Shown one piece after another: positions 9,205 to 22,874 of a DNA stretch of 24,000 nucleotides; position 1 is the stretch's first letter, and every line of letters starts with the position of its first letter. Source of the stretch: Clostridium mobile (GTDB lineage Bacteria > Bacillota > Clostridia > Clostridiales > Clostridiaceae); contig NZ_JAHLQF010000001.1 of assembly GCF_018918285.1 (NCBI RefSeq), positions 673,284 through 697,283 on the forward strand. The letters run 5' to 3'. Below the pieces are notes generated by a model that did not search any database, had not been told where the DNA came from, and worked only from the letters and a program-made list of their open reading frames with translations. Position numbers and translations under genes: made by a program.

Positions 9205-9783
9205 TTATCTCTTCACTATATAGAACTTAAATAGTGCAAGTATCTCTCTTAAAAAATAATAATATTCTTTTTCCTTATGCTCTGTAACAAAAGCCCCTGA
9301 GAAAGAAGCATCTATTCCAGTTTTTTTAGCCATTAAAGAAGCTCTTTTTAAGTGAAATTTGTTAGATACTACGATAGCTTTATCAAACCCTCTCTCCTCC
9401 ATGATTCTCTTACTCTGTTCTAAATTTTCCATGGTACTAGTGGATAAATCTTCTTTAATTATTGCATCTTCTGGTACACCTTTATTAACTAAATATCTTT
9501 TCATAGCTTCCGCTTCGCTTATATTTTCCCCTGGACCTTGTCCCCCTGAAGCGATTATATAATCCGCATATCCTTCTTTATATAGCCTATAACCTTCTTC
9601 TATTCTTGCCTTTAAAAATGGGCTAGGAGTCTCCCCATAAACACTACATCCAAGAATGATAATACTCTGGCTTTTTTCAGCTTTTGAATTCCACCCAAAA
9701 TTATAAATTTTTAAAGCTAAAACTAAACATAGTGATATGCCAAGTACAATTATCCATATAAACACCTTTTTAACTTTAGTCAT
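9205..9783 (-). CDS. YdcF/SanA/ElyC-like DUF218 membrane-anchored protein
   Basis: The track ORF runs to 9837. I prefer ATG at 9783 (MTKVKKVFIWIIV), preceded by AGAGGAGAG. It has an N-terminal transmembrane helix. The DUF218 pattern follows: IIILGCSVYG...IIASGGQG...SEAEAM..YL...G...I..E..STST.EN. Confidence 0.8.
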   Translation of the reverse strand: MTKVKKVFIWIIVLGISLCLVLALKIYNFGWNSKAEKSQSIIILGCSVYGETPSPFLKARIEEGYRLYKEGYADYIIASGGQGPGENISEAEAMKRYLVNKGVPEDAIIKEDLSTSTMENLEQSKRIMEERGFDKAIVVSNKFHLKRASLMAKKTGIDASFSGAFVTEHKEKEYYYFLREILALFKFYIVKR

Positions 9784-9988
9784 TTCATTCTCTCCTCTGT
9801 ACGTTATCTCATAGCTAACCGTAACTAATACCCACACCTATTTAAGTGGGACAATAATGTATCTAATTTCTTTGATTAGTTCAGTTAAAATTTACTATAT
9901 GATAATAGTATATCATTATTTGTACAAGTAAATTGAATTATATAGAAAAATTCCATTGAATAGGAAATTACAATTCAGTTTCACAAAC

Positions 9989-10054
9989 AGAGAGCTAAGC
10001 ATGTAGTGAAGCCGCTCTGAAAAAGTCGCTTTTTCACTACATGCTTAGCTCTCT
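9989..10054. repeat. Hairpin module B, copy 1 (perfect 22-bp stem)
   Basis: AGAGAGCTAAGCATGTAGTGAA (9989-10010) is the exact reverse complement of 10033-10054. The 22-nt loop is GCCGCTCTGAAAAAGTCGCTTT. Confidence 0.9.
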
Positions 10055-10140
10055 TAGGTTTTATAGAGATACTTTCTAATTAAATTATATAAGATTAGTT
10101 TGCAATTATAAATTTCTACAAGTATATATATATCAGAAAT

Positions 10141-10208
10141 AGGAACTGAGGTACATAATGACGTCGCGTCACAAAAAGGCGCTCCTCCCGCTATATACCT
10201 CAATTCCT
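10141..10208. repeat. Hairpin module D, copy 1
   Basis: AGGAACTGAGGTACATA (10141-10157) pairs with TATATACCTCAATTCCT (10192-10208) at 15 of 17 positions. The homologous copy is at 20298-20363. Confidence 0.85.
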
Positions 10209-10284
10209 TTATGTTTTACAGACATATTTTCAAATTTATATTATAACAGATTGTTTTCTCAAGCATTTATTTTTAAGATTTCAT

Positions 10285-10490
10285 GTGCAAAACTTAAAAA
10301 TGCTATGTAATGTGGCCTATGCATTTGAGCAAAATTTAGAAATTCTTAATTTATTTAGAAGGATGCCGTTAAAATGCTGCACATGTCTGACCGAAGGGAG
10401 TTTGTCAACATTAGGGATTTTTATAAAATAAATTTTAGAAGTTCTTATTGAAGCAAATCAGCATAATAAGCATTACATAGCATTTTTTAT
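10285..10490. repeat. Module E, the only full-length copy; MITE-like with 17-bp terminal inverted repeats
   Basis: AAAAATGCTATGTAATG (10296-10312) is the exact reverse complement of CATTACATAGCATTTTT (10471-10487). The left half recurs at 18039-18185, 18924-18986 and 19921-19985. Confidence 0.8.
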
Positions 10491-10688
10491 TTGTTTTACT
10501 TCTAAATTGTTTTCACAATTATAAGTTTCTATAAAGATAATGATGATAGATCTTTAGATAATAGATGTTGTGGAAATCTATTTTAGGAGATTTCTTAGAT
10601 TATTTAAAAATCCTATGATTTTATGGGGTTTTATTGTGATCTAAAATAATTATGCAGGAGCATTTATAAGCCCGGCTTGCCTTTAGCA

Positions 10689-11573
10689 TCACCATTCAAT
10701 ATCCTCGCATATTTTTAAAAACGCCTCTATCGAAGGAGAAATCCATTTATCTCTATGATGTACAACCTGAATGAACAATTTTAAGTCTTTCCCTGCCCAG
10801 TTAAGTTTGGCAAGCCTATGTGCAGCTATTTCATCATGGGCCTCATATAAGGGCAGCACTGTGATTCCAAAACCCAGCATAGCAAATTGTTTAAGTGTTT
10901 GTACGCTTCCTGTTTCCAGCATTGTCCGGAATGTTTCACGGGCATCCTCCATAACTGCCTGAAATAAATTTTGACAGCAGCAGCCGTGGGATACCAAAAG
11001 CATAGGATAGTTTGACACATCATGGGGAAAAACACTTTCTTTGTAAGCTAAAGGGTGGTCAGGTGAAACTAAGAGAGCCAAAGATTCTTCTCTTTGTATT
11101 TCAACCTTTAATTCGGGGGCATGCCATGCCCTGTCTAATAATACCGCGATATCAATTTGATTTTCTTTCAACCATATTTCCAATTCGTCTGTTGAGCCAA
11201 TCTTTATGCTGAATTCCACCTCTGGATACTGCTTATGATATTCTTCCAGCAATTTAGGCAATTTAGCCGCACAAATGGATTCGTCTGCTCCGATTGTAAG
11301 AATTCCACGCGGGAATTTTGATGAAGAGAGTAAACCCTTTGCCTTTTCCCATGAACAAAGAAGTTCTCTTGCATATATAAGAAATTCTTCGCCTTCGGGT
11401 GTAAGGCATACTTTTTTACCTAATCTGTCAAATAAACGTACCCCCAGCTCCTTTTCCAGCATTTGAATTTGTGACGTTACAGAGGATTGAGCATATCCAA
11501 GCTGATCAGCCGCCTGCGTAAAATTATGCAAAGTAGCTACAGTTATAAATGCGTTAATTAATCTGATATCCAT
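10689..11573 (-). CDS. LysR-family transcriptional regulator
   Basis: 294-aa ORF with an N-terminal HTH (FITVATLHNFTQAADQLGYAQSSVTSQIQMLEKELGVRLFDR) and a substrate-binding-domain length typical of LTTRs. It is divergent from the nitroreductase gene. G+C is higher than the flanks. Confidence 0.9.
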   Translation of the reverse strand: MDIRLINAFITVATLHNFTQAADQLGYAQSSVTSQIQMLEKELGVRLFDRLGKKVCLTPEGEEFLIYARELLCSWEKAKGLLSSSKFPRGILTIGADESICAAKLPKLLEEYHKQYPEVEFSIKIGSTDELEIWLKENQIDIAVLLDRAWHAPELKVEIQREESLALLVSPDHPLAYKESVFPHDVSNYPMLLVSHGCCCQNLFQAVMEDARETFRTMLETGSVQTLKQFAMLGFGITVLPLYEAHDEIAAHRLAKLNWAGKDLKLFIQVVHHRDKWISPSIEAFLKICEDIEW

Positions 11574-11736
11574 AGATTTTATCCTTTCATCTGTTTTTTC
11601 GATTTATCCAATAGAAACAATCAATTTCACCGATTTAAAAAATTATGTTATCATAATACCACATATCAAAAGCAAAAGACAACGCTTTGTTTTTGGCGTT
11701 GTATATTTGCGGGATTAAAGAACTGGAGGTATCTGT

Positions 11737-12240
11737 ATGAAGGAAATTTTTAACCGCAGAAGTATTCGGAAATTTAAGAATATACCTGTGGAGAAAGAAA
11801 AAACAGATAGATTGCTGCGGGCAGCTATGCAAGCTCCCTCGGCACTCAATCAACAGCCATGGGAATTTATTGTTGTTGAGGATAAAGCGTCCTTACAAAA
11901 ACTATCTAAGTCTATACCTGATGCAAAACCGGTTGAGAATTCAGGGCTAACATTGATTCTTGCAGCAAACAGCAGCAAGTTCAGATTTGAACCGGATTGG
12001 CAGTCGGATATGAGTGCGGCAGCGCAAAATATCTTATTGGAAGCGGTTCATTTGGAGCTTGGAGCTGTGTGGATAAGTATTTCATCTGTGGATTCCGCCA
12101 TAAGTTATGTGAAGGAGATGTATAAACTGCCTTCTCATATTAAGCCCTTTGCATTGATTGCCGTTGGTTATCCGGATAATCAGAAAAATCAATTTATAGA
12201 TCGATATAATGCTGAAAAAATCCACTATGAGAAATGGTAA
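11737..12240 (+). CDS. Nitroreductase-family (FMN-dependent) oxidoreductase
   Basis: 167-aa ORF. RRSIRKF...L.AA..APSA.N.QPW.F and the C-terminal GYP motif are typical of the family. The RBS is GGAGG. Confidence 0.85.
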   Translation: MKEIFNRRSIRKFKNIPVEKEKTDRLLRAAMQAPSALNQQPWEFIVVEDKASLQKLSKSIPDAKPVENSGLTLILAANSSKFRFEPDWQSDMSAAAQNILLEAVHLELGAVWISISSVDSAISYVKEMYKLPSHIKPFALIAVGYPDNQKNQFIDRYNAEKIHYEKW

Positions 12241-12369
12241 GTGAAGGGCCAAAATGCGAATAGCATGAAAAATTGAAAAGGAGAAATTAGAGGATATTCA
12301 AGCTTAGTGGAAGCAAAAGATTTGGGAAAGAGCAGCAACAAAAATTCAATTTAGAAAGGATGATATTCG

Positions 12370-12951
12370 ATGGGTAAGAAAATTCTTGTTATCACTGGAA
12401 GTCCCCGAAAAAAAGGAAACAGCTTCGCCATGACGGACGCTTTTGTCAATGCCGCAGAAGCAAAAGGCCACACCGTAACACGTTTTGATGCGGCGTTTAT
12501 GAATGTAGGCGGATGCCGTGCGTGTGATACCTGCTTCCAAACAGGTAGAGCATGTAGCTTCGATGATGATTTCAACACAATAGCCCCGGAAATTGAGGCG
12601 GCGGACGCGATTGTATTCACTTCTCCGGTGTATTGGTACACTTTCAGCGCACAAATCAAGGCTGTCATGGACAAATTGTATGCCTTTATGACCGTAGAAA
12701 AAGATATTGCGAATAAGAAGCATGGGTTCGCAAGAAAAGGTATTGGGGGTAAGAAGTACGGATTGATATCCTGCTATGAAGAAAATGATATGTCCGTTAT
12801 GGACGGCGTTCGTTTTTCTTATGAACGCACTGTTACAATGCTTAAAGGGACGTCTGTTGGTGAAGTGTTAATCCCGAACGTGTGGGACGTTAACGATATT
12901 CAAAAAACCGAGGGCATCGAGCAGGCTAAAGCTCTGGCAGAGAAATTTTAG
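12370..12951 (+). CDS. Flavodoxin-fold NAD(P)H-dependent FMN reductase, iron-sulfur flavoprotein (Isf)-like
   Basis: 193-aa ORF. ILVITGSPRKKGNS is the FMN-reductase P-loop-like motif. The compact cysteine cluster CRACDTCFQTGRAC (C-x2-C-x2-C-x6-C) matches the Isf [4Fe-4S] motif. The overlapping minus-strand ORFs at 12346-12723 are shadows. Confidence 0.8.
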   Translation: MGKKILVITGSPRKKGNSFAMTDAFVNAAEAKGHTVTRFDAAFMNVGGCRACDTCFQTGRACSFDDDFNTIAPEIEAADAIVFTSPVYWYTFSAQIKAVMDKLYAFMTVEKDIANKKHGFARKGIGGKKYGLISCYEENDMSVMDGVRFSYERTVTMLKGTSVGEVLIPNVWDVNDIQKTEGIEQAKALAEKF

Positions 12952-12989
12952 TGTTCGGCTTTATGTGTATATAATATTATACTAACACC

Positions 12990-13112
12990 ACAGATTGTTT
13001 TCTTGTACAAATATAGATTTCTACAAAGATAATTTAGTTTCACAAACAGAGAGCTAAGCATATAGTGAAGCCGCTCCATGAAAAGTCGCTTTTTCACTAC
13101 ATACTTAGCTCT
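12990..13112. repeat. Module A plus hairpin module B, copy 2
   Basis: Module A is ACAGATTGTTTTCTTGTACAAATATAGATTTCTACAAAGATAAT. The hairpin arms are 13050-13069 and 13093-13112, pairing at 18 of 20 positions. Both mismatches are C:A or A:C on the plus strand. Confidence 0.85.
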
Positions 13113-13280
13113 ATTGATCTAAATGGTTGGAAATAACTAAACCAGATAAAGATGTTATTGGAAATGTAAGATTACTTTTAGATAGTATTATCGAGCCTAT
13201 TTATGTAAAAATAAGAACAGTATAGGAAAAGGCAACTTGTCTCTTTGCTTGATAAATATATGTAAATTATGTTAGTGACT

Positions 13281-13330
13281 TAAAGATATTAATTATATAA
13301 TAAAAGAATAGTTAATACGTTATGGTAAAG
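13281..13330 (+). repeat. Module C, copy 1 (contains TATAAT at 13296-13301)
   Basis: TAAAGATATTAATTATATAATAAAAGAATAGTTAATACGTTATGG is homologous to 16437-16482, 18196-18245 and 19071-19118. Confidence 0.8.
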
Positions 13331-13356
13331 AAATGCGAAATCAAGGAGAAAGAGAT

Positions 13357-13476
13357 ATGGGTTCAGAAACCAAACAAAGACTTGAACGATTAAAAGAAGA
13401 AAAAAATGCAAAATACGGATTTGTTATTAGTATAGATGAATACCAAGATATCAGTATTGAATTCTGGGGTATATAG
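13357..13476 (+). CDS. Possible 39-aa small protein (MGSETKQRLERLKEEKNAKYGFVISIDEYQDISIEFWGI)
   Basis: Below the ORF-track size cutoff. AAGGAG lies 8 nt upstream of the ATG. The ORF starts 27 nt after module C. I recognise no homology. Confidence 0.3.
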   Translation: MGSETKQRLERLKEEKNAKYGFVISIDEYQDISIEFWGI

Positions 13477-13519
13477 ATAACATATCTTTAGCAGTAAAAT
13501 ATGACGTAATCTTCTTAAA

Positions 13520-13548
13520 TTGTGTAACTGTCTACTATTTAGTATAAT
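13520..13548 (+). promoter_or_regulatory. Sigma-A type promoter of the yjdF-like gene
   Basis: TTGTGT (13520-13525), a 17-nt spacer, then TATAAT (13543-13548). Confidence 0.55.
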
Positions 13549-13554
13549 AATTTT

Positions 13555-13668
13555 ATGGAGATAAAAACACAGTTTCGGTTGGTAGTCCGAACCTATAATT
13601 TAAATATATAGCAGTAACCTGCCCTCCTGGGGTTGTCCATTCTCCGTTATTAGATTTTAAACAGGAGG
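13555..13668 (+). ncRNA. Candidate yjdF-motif (azaaromatic-responsive) riboswitch or structured leader
   Basis: A leader of about 125 nt lies between the promoter and a DUF2992/YjdF-family CDS, which is the genomic context that defines the yjdF motif. Nested helices are visible: ATGGAGA (13555-13561) with TCTCCGT (13641-13647), and TTCGG with CCGAA around 13574-13591. CCTCCTG (13623-13629) is the exact complement of the Shine-Dalgarno region CAGGAGG (13662-13668). Confidence 0.5.
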
Positions 13669-13678
13669 TAATTTTATT

Positions 13679-14095
13679 ATGTATGCAAGTGTAAAATTGA
13701 CTGTATTTTTTGAAGAACCATTTTGGGTGGGTGTACTTGAAAAATGCGACTATGATTCTATATGTGTTTGTAGAGTAGTTTTTGGTGAAGAACCAAAGGA
13801 TTATGAGATTTATGAATTTCTATTAAAAGAATATAGAAATCTCAAATTTAGCAGCCCTATATCTACTGATAAAATTGAAAAAGACAAAATAAATCCTAAA
13901 AGACTCCAAAGGAAAATTAAAAGAGAAATTAAAAACACTGGAGTTGGAACAAAAGCACAACTTGCTATGAAACAACAGTATGAAGTAAACAAAACTGAAA
14001 AAAGAAAAATTTCAAGAGAAGAAAAGGAACAAGAAAAAGAAAGACAGTATGCATTACGACAACACAAAAAGAAGGAAAAACACAGAGGACATTAG
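13679..14095 (+). CDS. yjdF: YjdF-family protein (DUF2992)
   Basis: 138-aa ORF. The N-terminal KLTVFFEEPFWVGVLE...VVFGEEPKD matches my recollection of the DUF2992 pattern. So does the lysine/arginine-rich C-terminus INPKRLQRKIKREIKN...KAQLAMK...KKKEKHRGH. Confidence 0.8.
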   Translation: MYASVKLTVFFEEPFWVGVLEKCDYDSICVCRVVFGEEPKDYEIYEFLLKEYRNLKFSSPISTDKIEKDKINPKRLQRKIKREIKNTGVGTKAQLAMKQQYEVNKTEKRKISREEKEQEKERQYALRQHKKKEKHRGH

Positions 14096-14162
14096 TCATA
14101 ATATGCGTATAGAGCACACAACATTGTAAAACAAATAAAGAAATAGTGAATATAGAAAAAAT

Positions 14163-14202
14163 AAAACATCGCACTATTCAAAAATAAATTTTGCGGTGTT
14201 TT
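14163..14202 (+). terminator. Possible terminator of the yjdF-like gene
   Basis: AAAACATCGCA (14163-14173) pairs with TGCGGTGTTTT (14192-14202), 11 bp including one G:U. The loop is long (18 nt) and the T run is part of the stem. Confidence 0.35.
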
Positions 14203-14293
14203 TATACGGTCTTTTAAATATATTACAACATAAATGTAACATAATTACCATTAGTTAAGTCGAAATAGTAGAATTATACATCTCAATCTTAGA

Positions 14294-14330
14294 AAATAAG
14301 GTAGGTCCACAAAATGACTCTACCTTATTT
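14294..14330. terminator. Terminator hairpin, most likely for the minus-strand DUF169 gene
   Basis: The stem is a perfect 11-bp pairing of AAATAAGGTAG (14294-14304) with CTACCTTATTT (14320-14330). T runs follow on both strands. Confidence 0.65.
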
Positions 14331-14363
14331 TATATTTTCCAAAATAGGTGCTAATTTCTTTGA

Positions 14364-15080
14364 CTAAATCCTTTCTGCAATTTGTAGCCACGTTTTCTTA
14401 GTCAAAAAGCTTTCTTCAACTTGTTCCTCTAACTCTAGAAAACGTTTATATGGTATACTAAAGGAAAGTATATCTTTATCGATGAATTTACGAGCTGATG
14501 GGTCTGTTAACCCGATAATGCACTTTGGATTCTCCGATTCCGTTTGTTCCATAGAATAGAGTATTGATTGCACACAGCCAGAAGCAAAGTCAACCTTGAC
14601 ATTATTCTGAGTCGGCTTATCGTAATTAGCAAACTGAACTAGAGCGGAAAGTTGGTCAGCATTAACTAGGAAGACAATTATCTCTGGTGTTTCTTCCTCT
14701 GTCAATTCTGCTAAGGGCTTAAAAACCATATAGTTTTTCGTATTAACTTCGGGTAATTTAGTAACAAATTCTGTAGCTAGCTTAGGGTTCTTTTTATAAA
14801 ATTCTCCCTCTTTATTTCCTACCCCTCCAGTTGATAGAAAATATTCAATATAACTTAACTCAAACCGTTTGAAACCCAGTCCAGCTTTACCACCCACACA
14901 GGTAGTTGTATTAACATCAAACATAGCGACACGACCTTTGGAAGAAGCATTTAACATTGAGATTACACATCCCCACTTTCCTTCCTGAAACTGTAGAGCG
15001 CCCTCATGCTTAACATCTGTTCGAAATACTGCAACTGGTTGATTTTTAAGTTTTATAGCCTGCCCAATCTTGCTATTCAT
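14364..15080 (-). CDS. DUF169-domain protein (COG2043-like)
   Basis: The track ORF runs to 15098 (TTG). I prefer ATG at 15080 ([18 protein letters not shown]), preceded by GGAAGGAAG. The segment [16 protein letters not shown]...[10 protein letters not shown] matches my recollection of DUF169 proteins. Confidence 0.7.
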
Positions 15081-15178
15081 CTTAGCACTTCCTTCCAAAT
15101 TATTTATTAATTTGCATATTAAAATAAATTAAATTCCCTCCTTTAATTATATTACTCTATCAATATTTATATCTAACC

Positions 15179-15296
15179 AAAATTGTTTCACATTTATAAA
15201 TTTCTACAAATATAATTAAATTTCCAAATCATAGAGCTAAGTACATATTGAAGCCGGTCCAATGAAAAGTCGCTTTTTCAATACATACTTAGCTCT
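15179..15296. repeat. Module A plus hairpin module B, copy 3
   Basis: Module A is AAAATTGTTTCACATTTATAAATTTCTACAAATATAAT (TTCACA-N18-TATAAT). The hairpin arms are 15233-15252 and 15277-15296, pairing at 18 of 20 positions. Confidence 0.85.
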
Positions 15297-15379
15297 CTTG
15301 TATTTTATAACTACATTTTATTTTCAAATCATAATAAATTAGTTTTTATATTTTCTCAACAGTATATATTCATTAGTTT

Positions 15380-16273
15380 TTATTTAAAATACTTTTTTAA
15401 CTGCTCTAAACTATCAATATCAAATATATCTGTAGCTATAACGTCAATAGTTTCTTCATCCAAAGATTTTATCTTTTCTTTATATTCCTCAGGAAAAGTT
15501 TTAAATTTTTTTATAAGCTGTTTTATAAGAATTTCTGATTTACCTTCCTCTTTTCCCTTCTTTATACCTTCCTTTAGTCCTTCTTTTACGCCATCCTCTC
15601 TCAACATCTTTCCTATTTCGGTCATAGATATCAACTCCTTAAATTTTATTTTCGATAATTCATCTCCAAATTTATCAAACAAAGCATATAGTAAACTTAA
15701 ACATTGCAATTTCTCATTACCTTCTGGCATTTTACCCGCTAACTCTATACTGTCTAAAGTTCTTTTGCTTCTACTTTCCTTACCATTCATCAAAGGTATA
15801 AAACTTAGTGTTACTATATCCTTACCGCTTAAAGTGTCTCCTCTTTCTATTTTATCCTCTAAACGCTTTAATTTTTCATCGCCGTCTAAATTCTTCATGT
15901 AAAAAGCTTCTACTTCATATTTTATAGTCCCTGCATCTATAGAAGTTTCAACATCTTCTATGTCTGCTGAATAAATTACTATGGTCCTTATTTTTCTCTT
16001 TTTCTTATAAAAAAGCGATGCATCATAATATAGAAATCTCTTAATGTCTTCCTTTTTATTCGTAGTCTGAAATTCAAAATGTAGATAACTTCCATCTTCC
16101 GTGTAAAAAAGATAGTCAGTATAGTTAGTTTTAATATCTATGTTCTTTATTTCAGTTTCTGCTGGAGCTATTATTTTAGTGTCTATTCCAAAAAATTTTA
16201 CAGCATTGTCTTTAAAGAATTCCATAGCCTTTTTCAAAACTGCATCCTCTACCTTATTATAATCCATATTCAT
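15380..16273 (-). CDS. Rpn/YhgA-like recombination-promoting nuclease (PD-(D/E)XK 'putative transposase' family)
   Basis: 297-aa ORF. The N-terminal nuclease core shows ...TDYLFYTEDGSYLHFEFQTT.... A Lys/Glu-rich linker (KEGLKEGIKKGKEEGK) and the C-terminal helical domain are typical of clostridial Rpn paralogues. Confidence 0.75.
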   Translation of the reverse strand: MNMDYNKVEDAVLKKAMEFFKDNAVKFFGIDTKIIAPAETEIKNIDIKTNYTDYLFYTEDGSYLHFEFQTTNKKEDIKRFLYYDASLFYKKKRKIRTIVIYSADIEDVETSIDAGTIKYEVEAFYMKNLDGDEKLKRLEDKIERGDTLSGKDIVTLSFIPLMNGKESRSKRTLDSIELAGKMPEGNEKLQCLSLLYALFDKFGDELSKIKFKELISMTEIGKMLREDGVKEGLKEGIKKGKEEGKSEILIKQLIKKFKTFPEEYKEKIKSLDEETIDVIATDIFDIDSLEQLKKYFK

Positions 16274-16394
16274 CCTCTCTTTCTACTGGTAATTATACAT
16301 TGGTATATTCCATATTATTTCCAACAAAAAAAGTTTTATACGAATATACGTTCGTAAATTTATTTTAGAAAATTAGACATCTAAATATCTAACT

Positions 16395-16482
16395 AAAATT
16401 ATTTTCTAATTTATAAATTTCTACAAAATGATTATAGTAAAGATGTTCATTATATAATAAAATAACAGTTACTACGTTAAGG
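16395..16482. repeat. Module A plus module C, copy 2
   Basis: AAAATTATTTTCTAATTTATAAATTTCTACAAAATGATTAT is followed by GTAAAGATGTTCATTATATAATAAAATAACAGTTACTACGTTAAGG. It is nearly identical to 19029-19118. Confidence 0.85.
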
Positions 16483-16508
16483 ATGTGATATATTAATCAC
16501 ATCCTTAA
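16477..16508. terminator. Hairpin downstream of the 16514-17275 gene
   Basis: The stem is a perfect 13-bp pairing of TTAAGGATGTGAT with ATCACATCCTTAA, with a 6-nt loop. There is no clean U tract on either strand. Confidence 0.4.
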
Positions 16509-16513
16509 AACTA

Positions 16514-17275
16514 TTAGTTATTCCACTTTTGCCAGTTTGAATCATGTTTTTTTAACGTTACATTATTAACTCTGAGCCTTCCATTTTCAAATACGTACTC
16601 CATGACAATGACAGCTATACTTACATCATTACCGACAACTATATTCATTTCAGCTATCAATTTGTTATCAATCACTTTATATTCCTGTACAGATCCAAAA
16701 CCAACTTCATTACCCCAATACGCAAGACTTGACTCCTTAGCCGTCATAGTATGATCATTACCTTTAATATTTATAGTAACAGTTACAATACCATCTTTCT
16801 TTGTCAATTTTCCTTTGATATTTTGGTATATGCCTTCACGTGGGTCCATTACATAAATGTCATAAAAAAAGCCCTCTTTATCAAACCTAAAGACATGGAC
16901 ATCTTGTAGTAATATTCCTGTACCATAACCTGATGTTGATATTACAATTAACTCTTTTTTTCCATCATTATTTATGTCACTTAGATTAAATGTAGGTTTC
17001 CGCACTGGGTTTGTATCTATTTGCCAACAAGAAAAGTACTTTTCATGATCTCTTACAGAAAGCACTATTTCTCTATATACGCCATCGTGTTCTTCTGCCC
17101 TCTTCCAGTCCATAGCATATAAATAAATATTCTCTTCTGTCCATGAAGATATTAGTTTGCCATCTTTTACATTCCAAAGAGCTTTGTCTAACGCTTTGTT
17201 TGTTGATGATATAGGTACACTATTTATAAAACTTGCTATTAATATCGGTAGTATGAAACATATTTTAAAAAACAT
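16514..17275 (-). CDS. Secreted hypothetical protein with an FG-GAP/VCBS-like DxNxDGxxE segment
   Basis: The track ORF runs to 17284 (GTG). I prefer ATG at 17275, 6 nt after GAGGTG. The N-terminal signal-like sequence is MFFKICFILPILIASFINS. DINNDGKKELIVIS resembles a calcium-binding FG-GAP-type turn. Confidence 0.6.
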   Translation of the reverse strand: MFFKICFILPILIASFINSVPISSTNKALDKALWNVKDGKLISSWTEENIYLYAMDWKRAEEHDGVYREIVLSVRDHEKYFSCWQIDTNPVRKPTFNLSDINNDGKKELIVISTSGYGTGILLQDVHVFRFDKEGFFYDIYVMDPREGIYQNIKGKLTKKDGIVTVTINIKGNDHTMTAKESSLAYWGNEVGFGSVQEYKVIDNKLIAEMNIVVGNDVSIAVIVMEYVFENGRLRVNNVTLKKHDSNWQKWNN

Positions 17276-17401
17276 GATAATCACCTCTACATAGTATGTA
17301 CATTTGATGATTTATTAATAATTCATCCTTTTCTTATGCTATATCGGCAAAGTAATAAATGACGGACTAAAAAATTTGAGCTAGTATTCATACTATCTCA
17401 A

Positions 17402-17830
17402 CTATTGAGGAATGTAACTTTTAATATGTTCAAATTTTTCAATTTTAACATTACCTCCTGCACTTACTATGAAAGTAATATTGTCAGTACCTACAGTGTT
17501 ATGCGCACCAATGTATGGATTTACTTGCAGTTTGATGATGAAAAGTTCTGTACGGTTACCATTAGGTCGTTCAACACTTAAAATATCAGTGCTCCAATTA
17601 TCAAAACTATATGATTTACCATAGTAATCCGTTATTGCCTTACTGATATATGGCTCAAGAAGCGTAAAAAAGATATCTTGATACAATTCTTCTCTTGAAC
17701 CTTCAGGTGGTCTGTAAGGATTGACCATAAACAATATTTTTTTATTATCCGACGCATATACAGTATTAAAAGAAAATATATTCATAACTATCATTATTGA
17801 AATAACTATAACAAATATAAACTTTTTCAA
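17402..17830 (-). CDS. Secreted DUF3888-like protein
   Basis: The track ORF runs to 17845. TTG at 17830 (KKFIFVIV...) follows a perfect GGAGGTGA RBS. It has a signal peptide ending in VYA. The pattern ...LEPYISKAITDYYG...W...IL.V.R......F.I.L.V.PY.GAHN..G.D.ITF matches my recollection of DUF3888. Confidence 0.6.
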   Translation of the reverse strand: MKKFIFVIVISIMIVMNIFSFNTVYASDNKKILFMVNPYRPPEGSREELYQDIFFTLLEPYISKAITDYYGKSYSFDNWSTDILSVERPNGNRTELFIIKLQVNPYIGAHNTVGTDNITFIVSAGGNVKIEKFEHIKSYIPQ

Positions 17831-17929
17831 GCTAATCACCTCCATAATTATTCCTATATTAGTTTATACTAATACAAGTTATTAATTAGTGGAAGGTAAA
17901 TGTGATAATGGTATAAAATATAAGTTTGT

Positions 17930-18245
17930 ATTGTATGTTGAGAAGTAATCTTCTTATATTGCATAGCAATATATAGTTGAACCTTAACATAAGATGCAAC
18001 CAATTTTTCTCTCAAATATTTATCTCTTAAATTCTATTGTGTAAAACTTAAAAATGCTATGTAATGCGCCATATGTATTTGAGCAAGATTTAGAAATTCT
18101 TAATTTATTTTAGAAAAATACCATTAATATGCTGTACATGTCTGACCGAAGGGAGTTTGTCAGCATTAGGGAGTTTTATAAATAGAATAATTATAACAAA
18201 GATATTCATTATATAATAAAAAAACAGTTAATATATTATAGTAAG
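17930..18245. repeat. Intergenic mosaic, module order G-E(left half plus core)-C
   Basis: G is ...GTTGAACCTTAACATAAGATGCAACCAATTTTTCTCTCAAATATTTATCTCTTAAATTCTATT. E spans 18039-18185 and includes the ATGCTG...CTGACCGAAGGGAG...CAGCAT core. C spans 18196-18245. Confidence 0.85.
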
Positions 18246-18285
18246 TTTGTGTGTAATAAAGATTTATTTTAAACGAGGTGATGAG

Positions 18286-18816
18286 ATGAAATCACTACCA
18301 AATTTTATATCCTTTAGTAGAATAATTTTTTCTTTGATTTTAATTTATACTAAGCCATCGAGCTCAGCCTTTTATGTAATATATATTATTTGTGGATTTA
18401 GTGACATTATAGATGGATTTATTGCCAGGAAGACAGGCACAACAAGCACTCTTGGTGCAAAGCTTGATTCCATAGCTGACATGATAATGGCAGGTGTATT
18501 GTTGCTTTTGATTTACCCAATTTTAAATCCTACAACTAAAGTTGTTATTTGGATTGTTTTAATTGGTATGATTAGATTATCATCCATGTTTGTAGCCATG
18601 AAAAAATATAAAACTTTTGCAAGTATTCATACTTACGGAAATAAAATTGCTGGTATAATTTTGTTCCTGTTCCCTATACTGATTCCCTATGTTAATACAA
18701 CTATATTAATGTATATAACTTGTATTGTGGCAAGTATATCGGCAATTGAAGAACTGATTATTCAACTCACATCAAACAAACTGGAATTAAATAAACAAAG
18801 TATATTCATAAAATGA
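18286..18816 (+). CDS. CDP-alcohol phosphatidyltransferase-family membrane protein
   Basis: The track ORF starts at 18247. I prefer ATG at 18286 (MKSLPNFISF), after GAGGTGATGAG. The signature D-x2-DG-x2-AR-x8-G-x3-D-x3-D is present as DIIDGFIARKTGTTSTLGAKLDSIAD. The protein is multi-pass and hydrophobic. Confidence 0.85.
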   Translation: MKSLPNFISFSRIIFSLILIYTKPSSSAFYVIYIICGFSDIIDGFIARKTGTTSTLGAKLDSIADMIMAGVLLLLIYPILNPTTKVVIWIVLIGMIRLSSMFVAMKKYKTFASIHTYGNKIAGIILFLFPILIPYVNTTILMYITCIVASISAIEELIIQLTSNKLELNKQSIFIK

Positions 18817-18820
18817 GGGA

Positions 18821-19118
18821 AATTTTTTAATAGAAACTATAGCGGACGCTGAAGTAAGAGGTTGAACCTTAACATGAGATCCAATCAATTTTTTTCTCAA
18901 ATATTTATCTTTTAAATTTTATTGTGAAAAACTTAAAAATGCTATGTAATGGGGCTTATGCATTTGAGCAAGATCTAGAGACTTTTAAAGATAGTTAGAT
19001 TAATAGATAAATAGATAAATATCTAACTAAAATTATTTTCTTATTTATAAAATTCTACAAAATGATTATAGCAAAGATGTTTATTATATAATAAAATAAC
19101 AGTTAATACACTATAGTT
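18821..19118. repeat. Intergenic mosaic, module order G-E(left)-F(partial)-A-C
   Basis: G spans 18821-18923, E 18924-18986, F 18987-19028, A 19029-19069 and C 19071-19118. All are co-oriented with the other copies. Confidence 0.85.
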
Positions 19119-19223
19119 ATATATTACGAATTATCAACATGTTATACATAGAAAATAGTATAGAAGGAAGGTGTACTTTAGTGAGAGTTTGGTACTTATT
19201 ATACACTCTCTTACTAAAGATAA

Positions 19224-19676
19224 ATGATGAATATCGAAATTAGAGAGATTACATCTGAAAACTTAAAAGAAGTTTTATCTCTACATGTAAGTGAAACCCA
19301 AAAATCATATGTGGAATCTACAAAACAATGTTTAAAAGATGCTACAGAATGTAATTGTTATCGACCTACAGGTCTTTATCAGGATGGGATTATGGTTGGA
19401 TTTGCAATGTATGGATTTTTTCCTGATGAGGATGGAAATGGTCGGGTGTGGTTGGACAGATATTTAATTGATGAGCGTTTTCAAGGAAAAGGACTTGGAA
19501 GTATTATGTTAGAGGAATTAATTACACACCTTATTAAAATATATAATTGTAATAAAATTTATTTAAGTCTTTATGAAGACAATCAGCGAGCTCTCCATTT
19601 ATATCAAAAATTCGGCTTTCACTTTAATGGAGAGTTAGACATTAATGGAGAAAAAGTAATGGTAAATGTATTATAA
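19224..19676 (+). CDS. GNAT-family N-acetyltransferase
   Basis: 150-aa ORF with the acetyl-CoA binding motif RFQGKGLGSIML (Q/R-x-x-G-x-G/A) and the typical C-terminal ...A..LY.K.GF segment. No obvious SD lies directly upstream. Confidence 0.85.
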   Translation: MMNIEIREITSENLKEVLSLHVSETQKSYVESTKQCLKDATECNCYRPTGLYQDGIMVGFAMYGFFPDEDGNGRVWLDRYLIDERFQGKGLGSIMLEELITHLIKIYNCNKIYLSLYEDNQRALHLYQKFGFHFNGELDINGEKVMVNVL

Positions 19677-20142
19677 ATACTACTTTTGTGTGTCAATAAT
19701 TATTTAATTAGATTTCACACATTTTTATATTACTCTATCAATTATATATATAACAGAGTAAAATTTTTTAATAGAAGCTATAGTGTATGTTGAAGTAAGA
19801 GCTTGAACCTTAAGATAAGATGTGCTTAAAGATGTTTAGATAATCAAATCAATAGATGGTATTTAAGTTCTATTATGTTTTACAGATCTTTTCCCGAGTA
19901 ATAGTAAACACTTATTCATAGTGCAAAACTTAAAAATGCTATGTAGTGCGCTCTATACATTTGAGCAAAATCTAGAAACTTCTAAAGATAGTTAGATTAA
20001 TAGATAAATAGATACGGTGGAAATCCTTTAATAGGGTTTCTCTATTATCTAAAAATCTAAAAAAACTAAACATCTAAGTATCTGATAAAAATTCTTTTCA
20101 TATTTATAAATTTCTACAAATATAATTAATTTTCCAAATCAT

Positions 20143-20206
20143 AGAACTAAGCACGTATTGAAGCCGCTCCAATAAAAGGTCGCTTTTTAAATACATACTT
20201 ATCTCT
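20143..20206. repeat. Hairpin module B, copy 4 (most degenerate)
   Basis: The arms AGAACTAAGCACGTATTGAA (20143-20162) and TTAAATACATACTTATCTCT (20187-20206) pair at 15 of 20 positions. Confidence 0.8.
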
Positions 20207-20297
20207 TTTATAGTTTACAAAGATACTTTCTAAATTAAATTATATAAGATTAGTTTACAATTATAAATTCTCACAAACATATTTATATATCAGAAAG

Positions 20298-20363
20298 AGG
20301 ACCTAAGTACATAATGATGTCACTTCTGAAAAAGGCGTTCCTCCCACTATATACTTAGTTCCT
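20298..20363. repeat. Hairpin module D, copy 2
   Basis: AGGACCTAAGTACATA (20298-20313) pairs with TATATACTTAGTTCCT (20348-20363) at 14 of 16 positions. Relative to copy 1, both arms changed together (GAGG/CCTC became AAG/CTT). Confidence 0.8.
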
Positions 20364-20694
20364 TTATGTTTTACAAATGTATTCAATAGGCTAATAGATA
20401 ATAAATTTGATGGAAATCCATTTAAAGAAATTACTTTACTATCCAACAGGTTAATAATTCTCACAATCGTTTGAAAGGATGTATGGAGCAAATTATTATT
20501 TTGAGTCAGATAATTTTTCGCCAGTAAGTATTTCAAATAGCTTTGCTGACTTATTCTTGTCTAATTGAACATATTTACTTTCACTGTCTATTACGAGTTC
20601 CACTTTGTCATTGTTTGGACTAATCCATAGGTCATATATTTATAAAGCAACAAACTTTAAGAAAGCAGCGAAAAATTATATCATGATGAATATC

Positions 20695-21867
20695 TTATGA
20701 ATTTATCAACATTTCATTTTTACTTAGCACTTTATATATGGAACCTATGATTCCTGCCCTGTTTCCTAAATTTCCGAACTTAACTTTAGGTAGAAAAGGA
20801 ACTAAATTTTTTAAGGTTTCTTCTATGGTTTTTATTCCTTCTTTTCCGATATTTAAAGCTTCTCCACCTAATATAACAACCTCTGGGTTTATTACAGATA
20901 TTAGATTTGCAATAGCATAACTCCAATGAAGGTAGATTTCATTAAGTAGGTTTTTATATGATTCATCCTCACTACTTTTTTCTACAATGTATTTTATTAT
21001 GCTATATTCTCCTTTAAGTAAATCTCCTTTATCTTTAATAAAATCCCTTAATGCTGTGGAAGAGTAATTGCATTCAAAGACACCTTGCTCATGATTATCC
21101 CTTTTTTTGAAATTTCCAACTACCATGTACCCTATTTCTCCAGCAGCTTGATCTGCTCCTCTATAGAGTTCTCCATTTATCATAAGCCCTGCCCCTATAC
21201 CGTTTCCAAAGTATATATAAGCCATATTAGTATCTTTTCTTTTATTATCACAGCTATTATAATACTCTCCAAGGCACATTAAATTAACGTCATTATCTAT
21301 AAATATGGGTACATCGATCCAGCTTTCAATTTTGTTTTTAAGAAGTATTCCTTTATATTTTATTTCTGGAGCAAACATTATCTCTTCATGCCCATCTTTG
21401 ATTATACCTGGAATTCCTATGGATATTCCCATTAGGTTATCCTTGTCTAAATTATTGTCTTCTAAGAGTTTAGAAACAGCAGCTCTAAAATCCTTGGCTA
21501 CTGCCTCCTCCTCTCTAGAATCCTCTACAGGAATAAACTCTGTGGACATAATCTCACCTAAAAGATTTCCTAAAGCTAAATCAATTCCTATATTTGTAAA
21601 CATAGCTCCAATGATTACATATTTCCTAGAATTAAACTTAAGTCTCATAGGTCTTCTCCCAACTTGAGTCTTTTCTCTTCCTTCTTCGAAAACCCATCCT
21701 TCATTAATAAGTTCATTTATAAGTGAACTTATACTAGGCTTAGACAATTTAGTAATCTTCGATATATCTGCTCTAGAAAGCCCCTCATTACTTTTTAATA
21801 TATCCAATATAATATTTTTATTAATTTTTTTCATTAATTTCATGTTACCTAATTCTTTTTTTGTCAT
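20695..21867 (-). CDS. ROK-family transcriptional regulator (NagC/XylR-like)
   Basis: 390-aa ORF with an N-terminal winged HTH (ILDILKSNEGLSRADISKITKLSKPSISSLINELINEGWV) and a ROK sugar-kinase-like body (GIPGI...DNDVN...GNGIGAG). Its start overlaps the upstream stop (ATGA). Confidence 0.88.
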   Translation of the reverse strand: MTKKELGNMKLMKKINKNIILDILKSNEGLSRADISKITKLSKPSISSLINELINEGWVFEEGREKTQVGRRPMRLKFNSRKYVIIGAMFTNIGIDLALGNLLGEIMSTEFIPVEDSREEEAVAKDFRAAVSKLLEDNNLDKDNLMGISIGIPGIIKDGHEEIMFAPEIKYKGILLKNKIESWIDVPIFIDNDVNLMCLGEYYNSCDNKRKDTNMAYIYFGNGIGAGLMINGELYRGADQAAGEIGYMVVGNFKKRDNHEQGVFECNYSSTALRDFIKDKGDLLKGEYSIIKYIVEKSSEDESYKNLLNEIYLHWSYAIANLISVINPEVVILGGEALNIGKEGIKTIEETLKNLVPFLPKVKFGNLGNRAGIIGSIYKVLSKNEMLINS

Positions 21868-22874
21868 AAAATCACCACTTGCTCTTTTACTTTCTGCATA
21901 TTTAATGGAGTTAGTAAATTCGAATGTTTTAATCCTAAAATTATTGCTCCAAAAATCGGCTTAACATCTATATGAACTATATTACATTCATTATAGTTTT
22001 CCATAACTTTTTTAACAAGGATATCTTTTAATAATGCGCTATTCTCTAATACCCCTCCAAGCAATGCTAGAGTGAAATCTTCTTTTAAATGTAATTTATT
22101 CACTACTACATTTAAATGACTTAACAACTCCTCTGCAGCCATATCTAGTATTTTAAGAGCTACTTTATCCCCATAAGAAGCAGATTTGAAAACATCTTTG
22201 GTTAATGCTGCTACTTTTTTTATAGAATAGTTCTCGCTATATACCCACCCCATTAATTCCTCTACATTTTCTAACTTTAAGCTATTCAGTACACTTTCCT
22301 TTAATAGGGTATTTTCTTTTCTCCCATCTTCACTGTGAAAAATAAATTTTATTGCCTGACTTCCTATCCAAAAGCCGCTTCCCTCATCTCCTAGTATATA
22401 TCCCCATCCACCAGCTCTATAGTATTGATTTTTATTATTTTTACCATAACATATAGAACCAGTACCAGATATTATTAAAACCCCTTCTCTTTCTTCTAGA
22501 GCACCATTTAAAGTTATATAAGCATCATTTTCTAGTGCATATTTATCTACAGTTATATTTAATTCATCAAATATAGTTTTAAATATTCTCTCCATTACTT
22601 TTTTATCTTTTCCTGTATCGTTACCAGCAATTCCTGCTATGACACACTCTATTTTACTTATGTCATAAGAATGTTTCTTTTGATACGTCTCTATAGCATT
22701 GAAAATAGAATTTTTTATGCTTTCTTTTGATTTTTCTTCGCCGATACTTTGATAATTGCAGGAACCACTTTCCCCTACTCCAACTATATTACTTTCATAA
22801 TCTAATAAAACTGATAAGCACTTCGTGCCTCCACCATCTATAGAAAGAACGGGTAAACTCACTTTATCTTTCAT
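21864..22874 (-). CDS. BadF/BadG/BcrA/BcrD-type ATPase (N-acetylglucosamine-kinase-like sugar kinase)
   Basis: 336-aa ORF with LSIDGGGTKC (phosphate-1), ISGTGS and GGWGYILGDEGSGFWIG, typical of this ASKHA subfamily. It overlaps the upstream gene by 11 nt. Confidence 0.8.
   Translation of the reverse strand: MKDKVSLPVLSIDGGGTKCLSVLLDYESNIVGVGESGSCNYQSIGEEKSKESIKNSIFNAIETYQKKHSYDISKIECVIAGIAGNDTGKDKKVMERIFKTIFDELNITVDKYALENDAYITLNGALEEREGVLIISGTGSICYGKNNKNQYYRAGGWGYILGDEGSGFWIGSQAIKFIFHSEDGRKENTLLKESVLNSLKLENVEELMGWVYSENYSIKKVAALTKDVFKSASYGDKVALKILDMAAEELLSHLNVVVNKLHLKEDFTLALLGGVLENSALLKDILVKKVMENYNECNIVHIDVKPIFGAIILGLKHSNLLTPLNMQKVKEQVVIL

Follow-up and report, generated by a model that had tools for sequence, protein, structure and literature searches.

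How is the turnover of accessory genes organised at a chromosomal site where no classical mobile-element gene is seen? This question is raised by a 24,000-nt stretch of contig NZ_JAHLQF010000001.1 (positions 673,284 to 697,283; hereafter the window, in whose coordinates all positions are given) from Clostridium mobile MSJ-11, the type strain of the species, isolated from macaque faeces (PMC9558573). From the letters alone, an original prediction had described in it an accessory island whose gene junctions carry co-oriented, shuffled repeat modules, named A to G, and had suggested an undescribed cassette-shuffling scaffold or a family of structured RNAs. The best-supported reading of our follow-up is that lineage-specific mosaic repeats mark the turnover of gene packets at this site and, at least sometimes, mediate it.

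The window is low-GC DNA (~29% GC) with ordinary chromosome on either side of the island: a response regulator, a copper-type P-type ATPase, oligopeptidase F, HisRS and DUF218/ydcF to the left, and a ROK regulator, a BadF/BadG-type ATPase and a lyase to the right. Between the DUF218/ydcF gene (9205-9837, - strand) and the ROK gene (20695-21867, - strand) lies the hypervariable island (9838-20694), whose ten genes, on both strands and assigned by Pfam and NCBIfam, form about six packets; three packets hold two or three genes, and five genes in all run antisense to the modules. The Pfam/NCBIfam scans took in the 23 longest non-overlapping open reading frames (ORFs) of the window and, as predicted, returned no integron integrase, no transposase of classical type and no RAYT (REP-associated tyrosine transposase). 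We found neither a tRNA or tmRNA integration target nor a relevant tandem array.

The repeats lie where they had been noted, at frequencies far above chance. With up to two mismatches the A core (TATAAATTTCTACAAA) matches seven times, always on the + strand (10107, 10520, 13012, 15195, 16412, 19046 and 20105; 0.33 expected), and an eighth copy with three mismatches lies at 20262. A 21-mer of E has four exact + strand matches (10289, 18043, 18928 and 19925; 0.03 expected), its single - strand match (10474-10494) being the right arm of the E palindrome. The C core is present in 4/4 copies at the noted positions (0 expected by chance), the F motif at three places (10561, 20000 and 20394; 0.01 expected) and the G core at two (18851 and 19792; 0 expected), while copies of B are found at 9966, 13031, 15208 and 20118 and copies of D at 10137 and 20294. 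Two further copies proved partial: the G noted at 17930 is only a 33-nt 3' fragment (17976-18008), the other two G copies standing, and of the F noted at 18987 only the 5' 40 nt are present. BLAST of the window against itself gave 23 direct repeat pairs confined to 9966-20407, where inverted matches are only palindrome arms (of B, of E and of a short hairpin at 16477-16508). The sole direct repeat elsewhere, 223 nt at 4113-4334 and 4383-4604 with 78% identity, corresponds to two tandem HMA domains of the P-type ATPase gene.

Between the DUF218/ydcF gene and the ROK operon, modules fill seven of the 11 intergenic gaps, all on the + strand, as against none of the ~7 gaps in the conserved flanks (Fisher P ~0.01). 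The prediction that all junctions carry the same modules held for the gaps at packet boundaries and not for four gaps inside multi-gene packets (11574-11736, 12241-12369, 14096-14363 and 17285-17401); the repeats thus mark packet boundaries, not every junction. All genes and the 13 kb of window flanks are repeat-free as well.

The elementary unit runs from an A leader of ~40 nt (AAATTGTTTTCACAtTTATAAATTTCTACAAAgATAAT) through a conserved hairpin to a T-tract and a ~50-nt tail (consensus TTTTATGTTTTACAAATATATTTTCAAATTTATATTATGACAGATTAGTTTC) that merges into the next A. The hairpin slot is filled by B or D (~66 nt), by E (a palindrome of ~225 nt) or by F. Searching with a B profile picks up both copies of D (E = 1e-10 and 4e-5), and B and D have in common CTAAGyAyrTArTGA...AAAAAGnCGCT...ATACTTAG, so that they are diverged versions of one hairpin; at least seven recurring modules had been predicted as separate, and the recurrence stands without the separateness of these two. 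The E palindrome is imperfect; its terminal arms read AAAAATGCTATGTAATG and CATTACATAGCATTTTT, and a T-tract comes after them. The termini of E are inverted over 17 nt, whereas the A-hairpin-tail units have no terminal inverted repeats. Two end modules, G and C, bound the island spacers, which reach ~700 nt; the unrelated packets, whichever way their genes point, are framed by the C of the preceding spacer and the G of the following one. The modules are shuffled less than had been supposed, most spacers being deletion derivatives of an archetype G-E-[A-B or A-D]-F-A2-C. C has a sharp end, at ...GTTATAGTA in 10/10 copies, beyond which the sequence is unrelated; A is like a sigma-70 promoter and scans as TTCACA-N18-TATAAT (or GATAAT) with up to 11/12 matches, and the left part of G reads, on the - strand, TAGATA-N18-TATAAT and then AAAGGAGG. 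The tail (TATATTATGACAG) resembles by eye the XerD arm of Firmicute dif sites at ~11/16 positions, a likeness that we judge too weak in AT-rich DNA. A coding role for E was rejected, as the 45-codon ORF of the window copy is disrupted by a 1-nt indel in 12/13 other copies.

The common plan of the units emerges from aligning 46 B/D units with each other and 13 full-length copies of E. The hairpins fold well beyond shuffled sequences (z -3 to -8) and keep their pairing through compensatory changes. B carries a G-C to U-A change in four copies; D carries A-U/G-C exchanges, G-C/A-U exchanges in six copies, and CTGAGGTA...TACCTCAG versus CTAAGTA...TACTTAG. In E, the variable stem positions are all U-A/U-G or G-U/G-C on the + strand, with none broken, and the consensus folds at -49 kcal/mol on that strand versus -30 on the other. 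Long unpaired stretches of E are invariant too, and invariant runs of 25-32 nt occur in E only. B and D lean the other way, C.A mismatches on the + strand becoming G.U pairs on the - strand, worth ~10 kcal/mol. E carries GGGAG in its apical region and D carries CUCCUCCC in an internal loop, and Rfam matches no module (best module score 26 bits versus a cut-off of 43), finding only a yjdF riboswitch. This anatomy makes terminator, promoter or small-RNA roles of the hairpin units plausible.

Gene content at the site differs among related genomes, in keeping with the predicted presence/absence polymorphism. We compared the window with two metagenome-assembled genomes (MAGs), 'Clostridiaceae bacterium AA2' and 'Uncultured Clostridium sp. 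bin.7', ~95% and ~90% identical to it in shared genes; the genome-wide statistics below are drawn from these two and one Logan contig. Conservation of the two flanks, ydcF and ROK, is 90-95% across the three genomes, and what lies between them is not the same. From ydcF to ROK, MSJ-11 has packets for LysR, nitroreductase and FMN reductase; yjdF; DUF169; an Rpn-like nuclease; a 256-aa protein and DUF3888; a CDP-alcohol phosphatidyltransferase; and a GNAT acetyltransferase. AA2 has DUF169, the phosphatidyltransferase and GNAT, then a contig break in E, and an intact YhfM gene next to ROK. The packets of bin.7 are 60-aa and 80-aa ORFs, the phosphatidyltransferase, a 128-aa ORF with OsmC, a 165-aa ORF with a hydrolase, and a phosphodiesterase; its island modules all face the same way as in the window.

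Breakpoints of these differences fall in or at modules. On each side of the 2.5-kb LysR packet stands a copy of A, the two being direct repeats, where AA2 has a single A whose left half matches the first copy and whose right flank matches the sequence after the second: by its sequence, this junction is the signature of direct-repeat recombination, whether by deletion or by insertion of the Campbell type. One end of the yjdF segment (13113-14325) falls exactly at the base of a B hairpin, the other at the T-tract that follows B in AA2. In AA2 and bin.7 the Rpn-like packet (15384-16363) sits at another locus, beside chemotaxis-receptor genes; there too it runs antisense to the modules, with a B unit close by on its 3' side. 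At that locus it interrupts a D unit, and the MSJ-11 copy keeps a piece of the D tail before joining a different module. The events other than that of the LysR packet look like illegitimate or multi-step events at hairpins.

Every module copy in the window faces the same way, as predicted, while the genes point both ways. The four possible configurations of flanking genes are about equally common (co/co 12, anti/co 9, anti/anti 8, co/anti 8), and we therefore rejected a terminator or promoter tied to the flanking genes as the cause of the lock. Adjacent clusters are co-oriented in 27/27 pairs within loci, or 27/28 with the Logan contig added; ~12 of them lie outside the island and count as independent of one another (P ~2e-4 under random orientation). 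Among loci, module orientation is unrelated to GC skew or coding strand, with 10 loci one way and 8 the other, and three individual contigs carry both orientations with the gene strand unchanged. These contig-level data argue against a lock to the direction of replication, which we rejected. The lock is a property of arrays a few kilobases long, not of the gene strand and apparently not of the replichore, so that the predicted orientation lock stands as a local one.

The modules are not a device specific to this island, as had been supposed; they are a dispersed, lineage-restricted repeat family in intergenic DNA. Across 185,579 species, each represented by one genome, exact matches to the E 21-mer lie in 19 stretches, 18 of them on many contigs of AA2 and bin.7, where further A, B, D and E units surround them, and the nineteenth being a chance match. 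No match to this 21-mer was found in viral contigs, none to the E and B core patterns in metagenome contigs of JGI, and none to the spacer of the first island gap in plasmid or phage collections. Module neighbours are ordinary chromosomal genes (129 ORFs; for example ABC transporters, chemotaxis receptors and sigma factors), and no integrase or transposase family recurs among these ORFs, which lie near modules at 17 other loci. Paralogous copies in one genome differ from each other as much as copies from different genomes do (E 89% and B 82% identity, maximum 93%), so the family expanded before the species split and no recent burst or transposition is visible. What we found is not random genome-wide scatter, unlinked to variable gene content, around an invariant island, the picture that would speak against the prediction. 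In bin.7, positions 1-8000 of contig L015 hold small accessory-type units (Staygreen, a GntR-ABC operon, NUDIX and FMN reductase) between co-oriented solo B, E' and D, a run which suggests that this genome has the island architecture at other places too.

We give about an even chance to the reading that these are mosaic repeats, akin to Neisseria intergenic mosaic elements (NIMEs) and bacterial interspersed mosaic elements (BIMEs), that serve as recombination substrates at a packet hotspot and probably also as terminators and promoters. Co-oriented repeats would supply portable homology together with palindromic weak points, and host recombination would then lose, gain or exchange segments at them. 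A crossover between two direct copies would excise a circle or, in the Campbell manner, integrate one, and breaks or template switches may happen at the hairpin bases; long palindromes are unstable in general and are plausible sites for both. Integration at a resident copy would always yield co-oriented copies, which would explain why arrays are internally co-oriented whatever the direction of their genes while separate arrays face either way. Independent transposition would not produce such an array-level lock, and a replication-coupled mechanism is contradicted. The hairpins with their T-tracts, and the promoter-like A, C and left part of G, probably terminate and promote transcription, insulating and expressing the packets.

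Several observations weigh against this reading. The clean direct-repeat signature is seen in only one of the four indels analysed, that of the LysR packet. A 205-nt A-D-tail-A unit is present in AA2 and absent from bin.7 with neither a flanking repeat nor a target duplication, and a G left intact in AA2 is interrupted by a 2.8-kb segment (15178-17975), which replaces ~47 nt of that G, again without duplication. Because nearly every packet boundary in the island carries repeats, breakpoints within repeats are partly expected by default. Nor is gene turnover confined to repeat-bearing sites, as content differences between AA2 and bin.7 at module-free sites show: a CbiMQO transporter block is such an indel (L020 4650-7887 versus L017 ~3896-3992), and a 944-bp lipoprotein/hydrolase gene (296 aa; L017 6355-7298 versus L014 2579-3522) occupies a module-free site in bin.7 and stands beside B-E' and a D-tail fragment in AA2. 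Copies that are 82-89% alike make a poor RecA substrate. Both comparison genomes are MAGs, and the island contig of AA2 breaks within a repeat (E). The sole flip in orientation, on a Logan contig (L026) of a C. mobile-like strain, places divergent units at the two ends of 8 kb. For the roles in expression, promoter-like sites number 73 against 61 expected, and the promoter and terminator assignments are based on likeness to consensus in DNA that is AT-rich; the -35 and -10 hexamers do not stand out in the conservation of A; and G.U wobble favours the + strand for E and the - strand for B and D, opposite preferences that no single transcript model fits.

In one alternative the repeats are passive passengers, that is, selfish or neutral elements resembling MITEs (miniature transposable elements with inverted repeats), or duplicated regulatory DNA, gathering in accessory regions, where selection is weak, with unrelated turnover around them and local co-orientation arising by local duplication of spacers. 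The family is old and without recent copies, indels occur at repeat-free sites too, the 129 neighbouring ORFs at the 17 other loci hold no recombinase linked to modules, and tandem duplication followed by decay predicts just such spacers, which look like deletion derivatives of one archetype. We nevertheless consider this unlikely in view of the allele pair at the LysR packet, with its exact A...A versus a single A, and of the two other breakpoints at hairpin bases (yjdF segment and Rpn packet); compensatory changes that keep pairing, and E loops that are long and invariant, are unlike neutral decay, and solo fragments outside the island, one to four unrelated genes apart, are co-oriented as well. 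Another alternative is a dedicated site-specific system, either integron-like or resembling the model put forward for Neisseria NIMEs with dRS3 and a phage recombinase, in which a trans-acting recombinase, its gene lying elsewhere in these genomes, recognises A or the folded hairpins and inserts or excises packets. It would account for A at nearly every module junction, the nucleotide-sharp end of C in 10/10 copies, three payloads that abut the hairpin/T-tract position, the strictly local orientation, hairpins with a favoured strand like attC sites, and the D-unit indel without target duplication. It is nonetheless improbable: the 23 longest window ORFs include no integrase, transposase or HUH gene (Pfam/NCBIfam), and no such family recurs among the module-adjacent ORFs; attC core sites are not enriched; dRS3 was not found in the island; junction positions vary among events; and the family of the Rpn-like nuclease in the island has spread through Clostridium species that lack the repeats. 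That nuclease was itself rejected as the driver, its family being widespread in repeat-free Clostridium species and one copy having been found per genome. We hold it to be just as improbable that the island is an integrase-free Firmicute cassette array, its composite hairpin spacers being specific sites for a trans-acting recombinase or nuclease and also framing expression-ready slots. Such a slot would have an inward promoter at each end (C rightward, the left part of G leftward) and bidirectional terminators between slots, and would express captured genes of either orientation.

Two further explanations shift the emphasis from recombination between repeats. The modules may primarily be RNA elements, either small units of transcription, with A as promoter, a hairpin RNA and a terminator, or insulators and terminators that are mobile and work in both directions, with genome plasticity as a by-product. 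The TTCACA-N18-TATAAT or GATAAT reading of A, the T-tract after every hairpin, the stems kept by compensatory changes, the CUCCUCCC and GGGAG motifs of D and E, and the wholly wobble-compatible variation of the E stem on the + strand all fit. No Rfam family matches, however; folds of B and D are ~10 kcal/mol better on the - strand, against the direction of promoter A; the pattern of conservation along A does not have the shape of a promoter; and promoter-like matches are barely above chance in AT-rich DNA, so that a primary role of this kind seems a poor prospect, on a par with that of a dedicated recombinase. Single-strand transposition by HUH/Y1 enzymes, with the units as derivatives of palindrome-associated transposable elements (PATEs) or of repetitive extragenic palindromes (REPs) moved by IS200/IS605 TnpA or by a RAYT, we regard as very improbable. 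Units that have hairpins, lack target duplication and terminal inverted repeats, and are non-randomly oriented would suit it; yet orientation is independent of gene strand and GC skew, with both orientations on the same contigs, no Y1 transposase was seen in the ~230 kb of sequence examined, no conserved 4-5-nt target lies 5' of the units, near-identical copies are absent, and hairpins of 66-225 nt, rich in AT, are unlike REPs. An origin as IS200/IS605-derived PATEs fails specifically on replication-strand bias, both orientations occurring on the same contigs with one flip within 8 kb.

Among known systems the closest parallel to the favoured mosaic-repeat reading is the Neisseria NIME arrays together with minimal mobile elements (MMEs): their architecture and their alternative gene sets recur here, and dRS3 does not. 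In NIMEs, short dRS3 repeats alternate with >100 RS families, in arrays that are dynamic between strains and for which a role in promoting the exchange of neighbouring genes has been proposed; dRS3 itself, an inverted repeat of 20 bp (ATTCCCN8GGGAAT), is known as a target of phage integration (PMC1797815). Here too a short conserved element separates diverse longer modules, A alternating with B, D, E and F; syntenic arrays vary in unit number and length between the three genomes; and alternative gene sets occupy one site between conserved flanks (ydcF and ROK). Unlike dRS3, A is asymmetric, AT-rich and ~40 nt long; the units are all co-oriented, the modules are long conserved hairpins with T-tracts, and the host is a Gram-positive anaerobe. 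Searching for dRS3 with up to two mismatches gave one match in the window, outside the island (8548), versus 0.58 expected.

REPs and BIMEs are likewise mosaic palindromic units with linker motifs, present in intergenic DNA in high copy, for which terminator-like and recombination-related roles have been proposed; REPs are G+C-rich palindromes of 20-40 nt whose orientation alternates along a BIME and which are associated with RAYT transposases (PMC2817692). The present hairpins are 66-225 nt, AT-rich and never alternating, and no RAYT gene was seen in the ~230 kb of sequence examined; membership fails on size, composition and alternating orientation. The pneumococcal BOX element (boxA-boxB(n)-boxC) is another modular non-coding repeat of a Firmicute, intergenic, variable in the number of internal modules and with strong predicted secondary structure (PMC3049150). 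It is set apart, by description, by a different module set, and BOX has fixed terminal modules, is MITE-like and is scattered singly. To our knowledge BOX does not form co-oriented arrays that bound alternative gene packets. The Bacillus cereus group, also low-GC Firmicutes, reportedly carries several intergenic repeat families of 100-400 nt (bcr1-bcr18), some of which are said to have conserved RNA-like structure and some to cluster in composite arrangements, and by description these resemble the present modules in all three respects. bcr1, by contrast, is MITE-like, with terminal inverted repeats and a TTTAT duplication, and we know of no report of orientation-locked arrays among the bcr repeats. 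Of the MITE criteria, inverted termini (17 nt) are seen in E and not in A-hairpin-tail units, and the single filled/empty pair is without duplication; an autonomous insertion sequence with matching ends was not found, the spacer of the first gap having no plasmid or phage similarity and no transposase standing beside modules.

Integrons resemble the island in having unrelated small packets at one site, separated by a strand-biased structured palindrome, with co-oriented sites and a content that varies among relatives. Here, however, we found no IntI, attI or Pc; the genes lie in both directions and some packets comprise two or three of them, whereas integron cassettes are mostly single, promoterless and co-oriented; and the spacers are composite and reach 700 nt, their modules being scattered through the whole chromosome. 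Pairs of RYYYAAC...GTTRRRY 45-145 nt apart number two in the island (one place, both strands), against 2.6 +/- 2.4 in shuffled sequence. The likeness to attC-type cassettes that had been suggested therefore fails on core sites, integrase and cassette orientation. As to novelty, "undescribed" is fair for the repeat sequence family, which is new; as a kind it has close precedents in NIME arrays with MMEs, in BIMEs and in BOX (PMC1797815), and non-coding mosaic repeats that flank swappable genes are not new. The strict array-level co-orientation and the long conserved hairpins are unusual.

If the repeats are the substrate for packet gain and loss, they would be a Gram-positive, anaerobic counterpart of Neisseria NIMEs and MMEs, and MSJ-11, as a cultured type strain, offers a tractable case of repeat-organised accessory-gene turnover without classical mobile-element genes. 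There is a practical side as well. Contigs L002, L003, L013 (E 21-mer at 137-159) and L026 (1-84 and 8023-8137) start or stop inside E or A-B/A-D units; MAG and Logan contigs that begin or end in this way indicate that the repeats break short-read assemblies of the clade. They also yield spurious ORF calls, such as a 77-aa ORF (20303-20536, - strand) that reads across D and whose sole "homologues" are other D copies.

From left to right, the island opens with the first B copy (9966-10065), whose 22-nt arms (9989-10010 and 10033-10054) are 100% complementary and which folds at -41 kcal/mol (z ~-7). A B tail and A follow (10078-10133; core 10107-10122), then the first D copy with T-tract and tail (10137-10236; hairpin ~10141-10208), an A-like leader with full-length E, a ~225-nt palindrome with its T-tract (10242-10500), the A that forms the left copy of the direct pair around the LysR packet (10504-10541; core 10520-10535), and F (10545-10640; motif 10561-10578). 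Packet 1 (10689-12951), not in the AA2 locus, comprises the LysR regulator (10689-11573, - strand), nitroreductase (11737-12240, + strand) and FMN reductase (12370-12951, + strand); at 38-41% GC (10500-13000), versus ~29% elsewhere, its composition suggests a recent foreign origin. Tail-like sequence with the right A copy (12960-13036; core 13012-13027) leads into the second B (13031-13116; arms 13048-13069 and 13093-13114). The segment missing in AA2 (13113-14325, + strand) then carries C (13263-13328), a 39-codon ORF between C and the riboswitch (13357-13476, + strand; good ribosome-binding site, AAGGAGAAAGAGAT-ATG), and an azaaromatic (yjdF) riboswitch (13551-13656, + strand; 88 bits) directly upstream of the DUF2992/YjdF gene (13679-14095, + strand), the canonical pairing. 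This riboswitch and gene thus sit in a packet that the closest relative lacks.

The DUF169 gene (14364-15098, - strand), a packet common to MSJ-11 and AA2, is followed by a pre-G or left part of G (15121-15177) and by A, the third B copy and tail (15166-15369; A core 15195-15210, reading TTCACA-N18-TATAAT at 11/12; arms 15233-15252 and 15277-15296). Next comes the gene for the DUF4351/Rpn-like PD-(D/E)xK nuclease (15380-16273, - strand). Its protein is 100% identical to one of Clostridium sp. MSJ-11, scores only 27 bits against a TIGR01784 cut-off of 52, has close homologues in many Clostridium species and carries an LHFEFQT motif, which we take to resemble the hhhEhQ catalytic motif of YhgA/Rpn PD-(D/E)xK nucleases. 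Beyond A2 and C (16362-16482; cores 16412-16427 and 16450-16474) lies a packet (16514-17845, - strand) of an uncharacterised 256-aa protein (16514-17284) and DUF3888 (17402-17845), not at this site in AA2 or bin.7. The following spacer (17976-18244) joins the right fragment of G (17976-18008), the 5' two-thirds of E (18003-18182) and C (core 18209-18233). The CDP-alcohol phosphatidyltransferase gene (18247-18816, + strand; likely true start ATG 18286) is the sole packet common to the three genomes.

The next spacer (18801-19117) holds G (core 18851-18872), the 5' third of E (18888-18988), the 5' part of F (18978-19017), A2 (core 19046-19061) and C (core 19084-19108), and is followed by the GNAT acetyltransferase gene (19224-19676, + strand), a packet found in AA2 too and not in bin.7. 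The longest spacer has a first part (19706-20120) of pre-G and G (19706-19823), a D-tail fragment (19863-19892), the 5' third of E (19915-19996), F (19975-20062) and A2/A (core 20105-20120), and a second part (20118-20440) of the fourth B copy (20118-20219), A (20233-20288), the second D copy (20294-20391) and F' (20394-20440). Modules in all these spacers are on the + strand. Between the longest spacer and ROK is a 5'-truncated pseudogene of the YhfM family (20499-20639, - strand); what is left of it, the last 47 codons, shares 96% identity with the intact 144-aa AA2 gene next to ROK (L022 11306-11740), the first ~97 codons being deleted in MSJ-11. Beyond the island, the operon of ROK, BadF/G ATPase, lyase, creatininase and ABC transporter genes (20695-24000) has orthologues only in the three related genomes, and the next best ROK homologue, from Bacillales, is only 40% identical, so the ROK operon itself may have been acquired.

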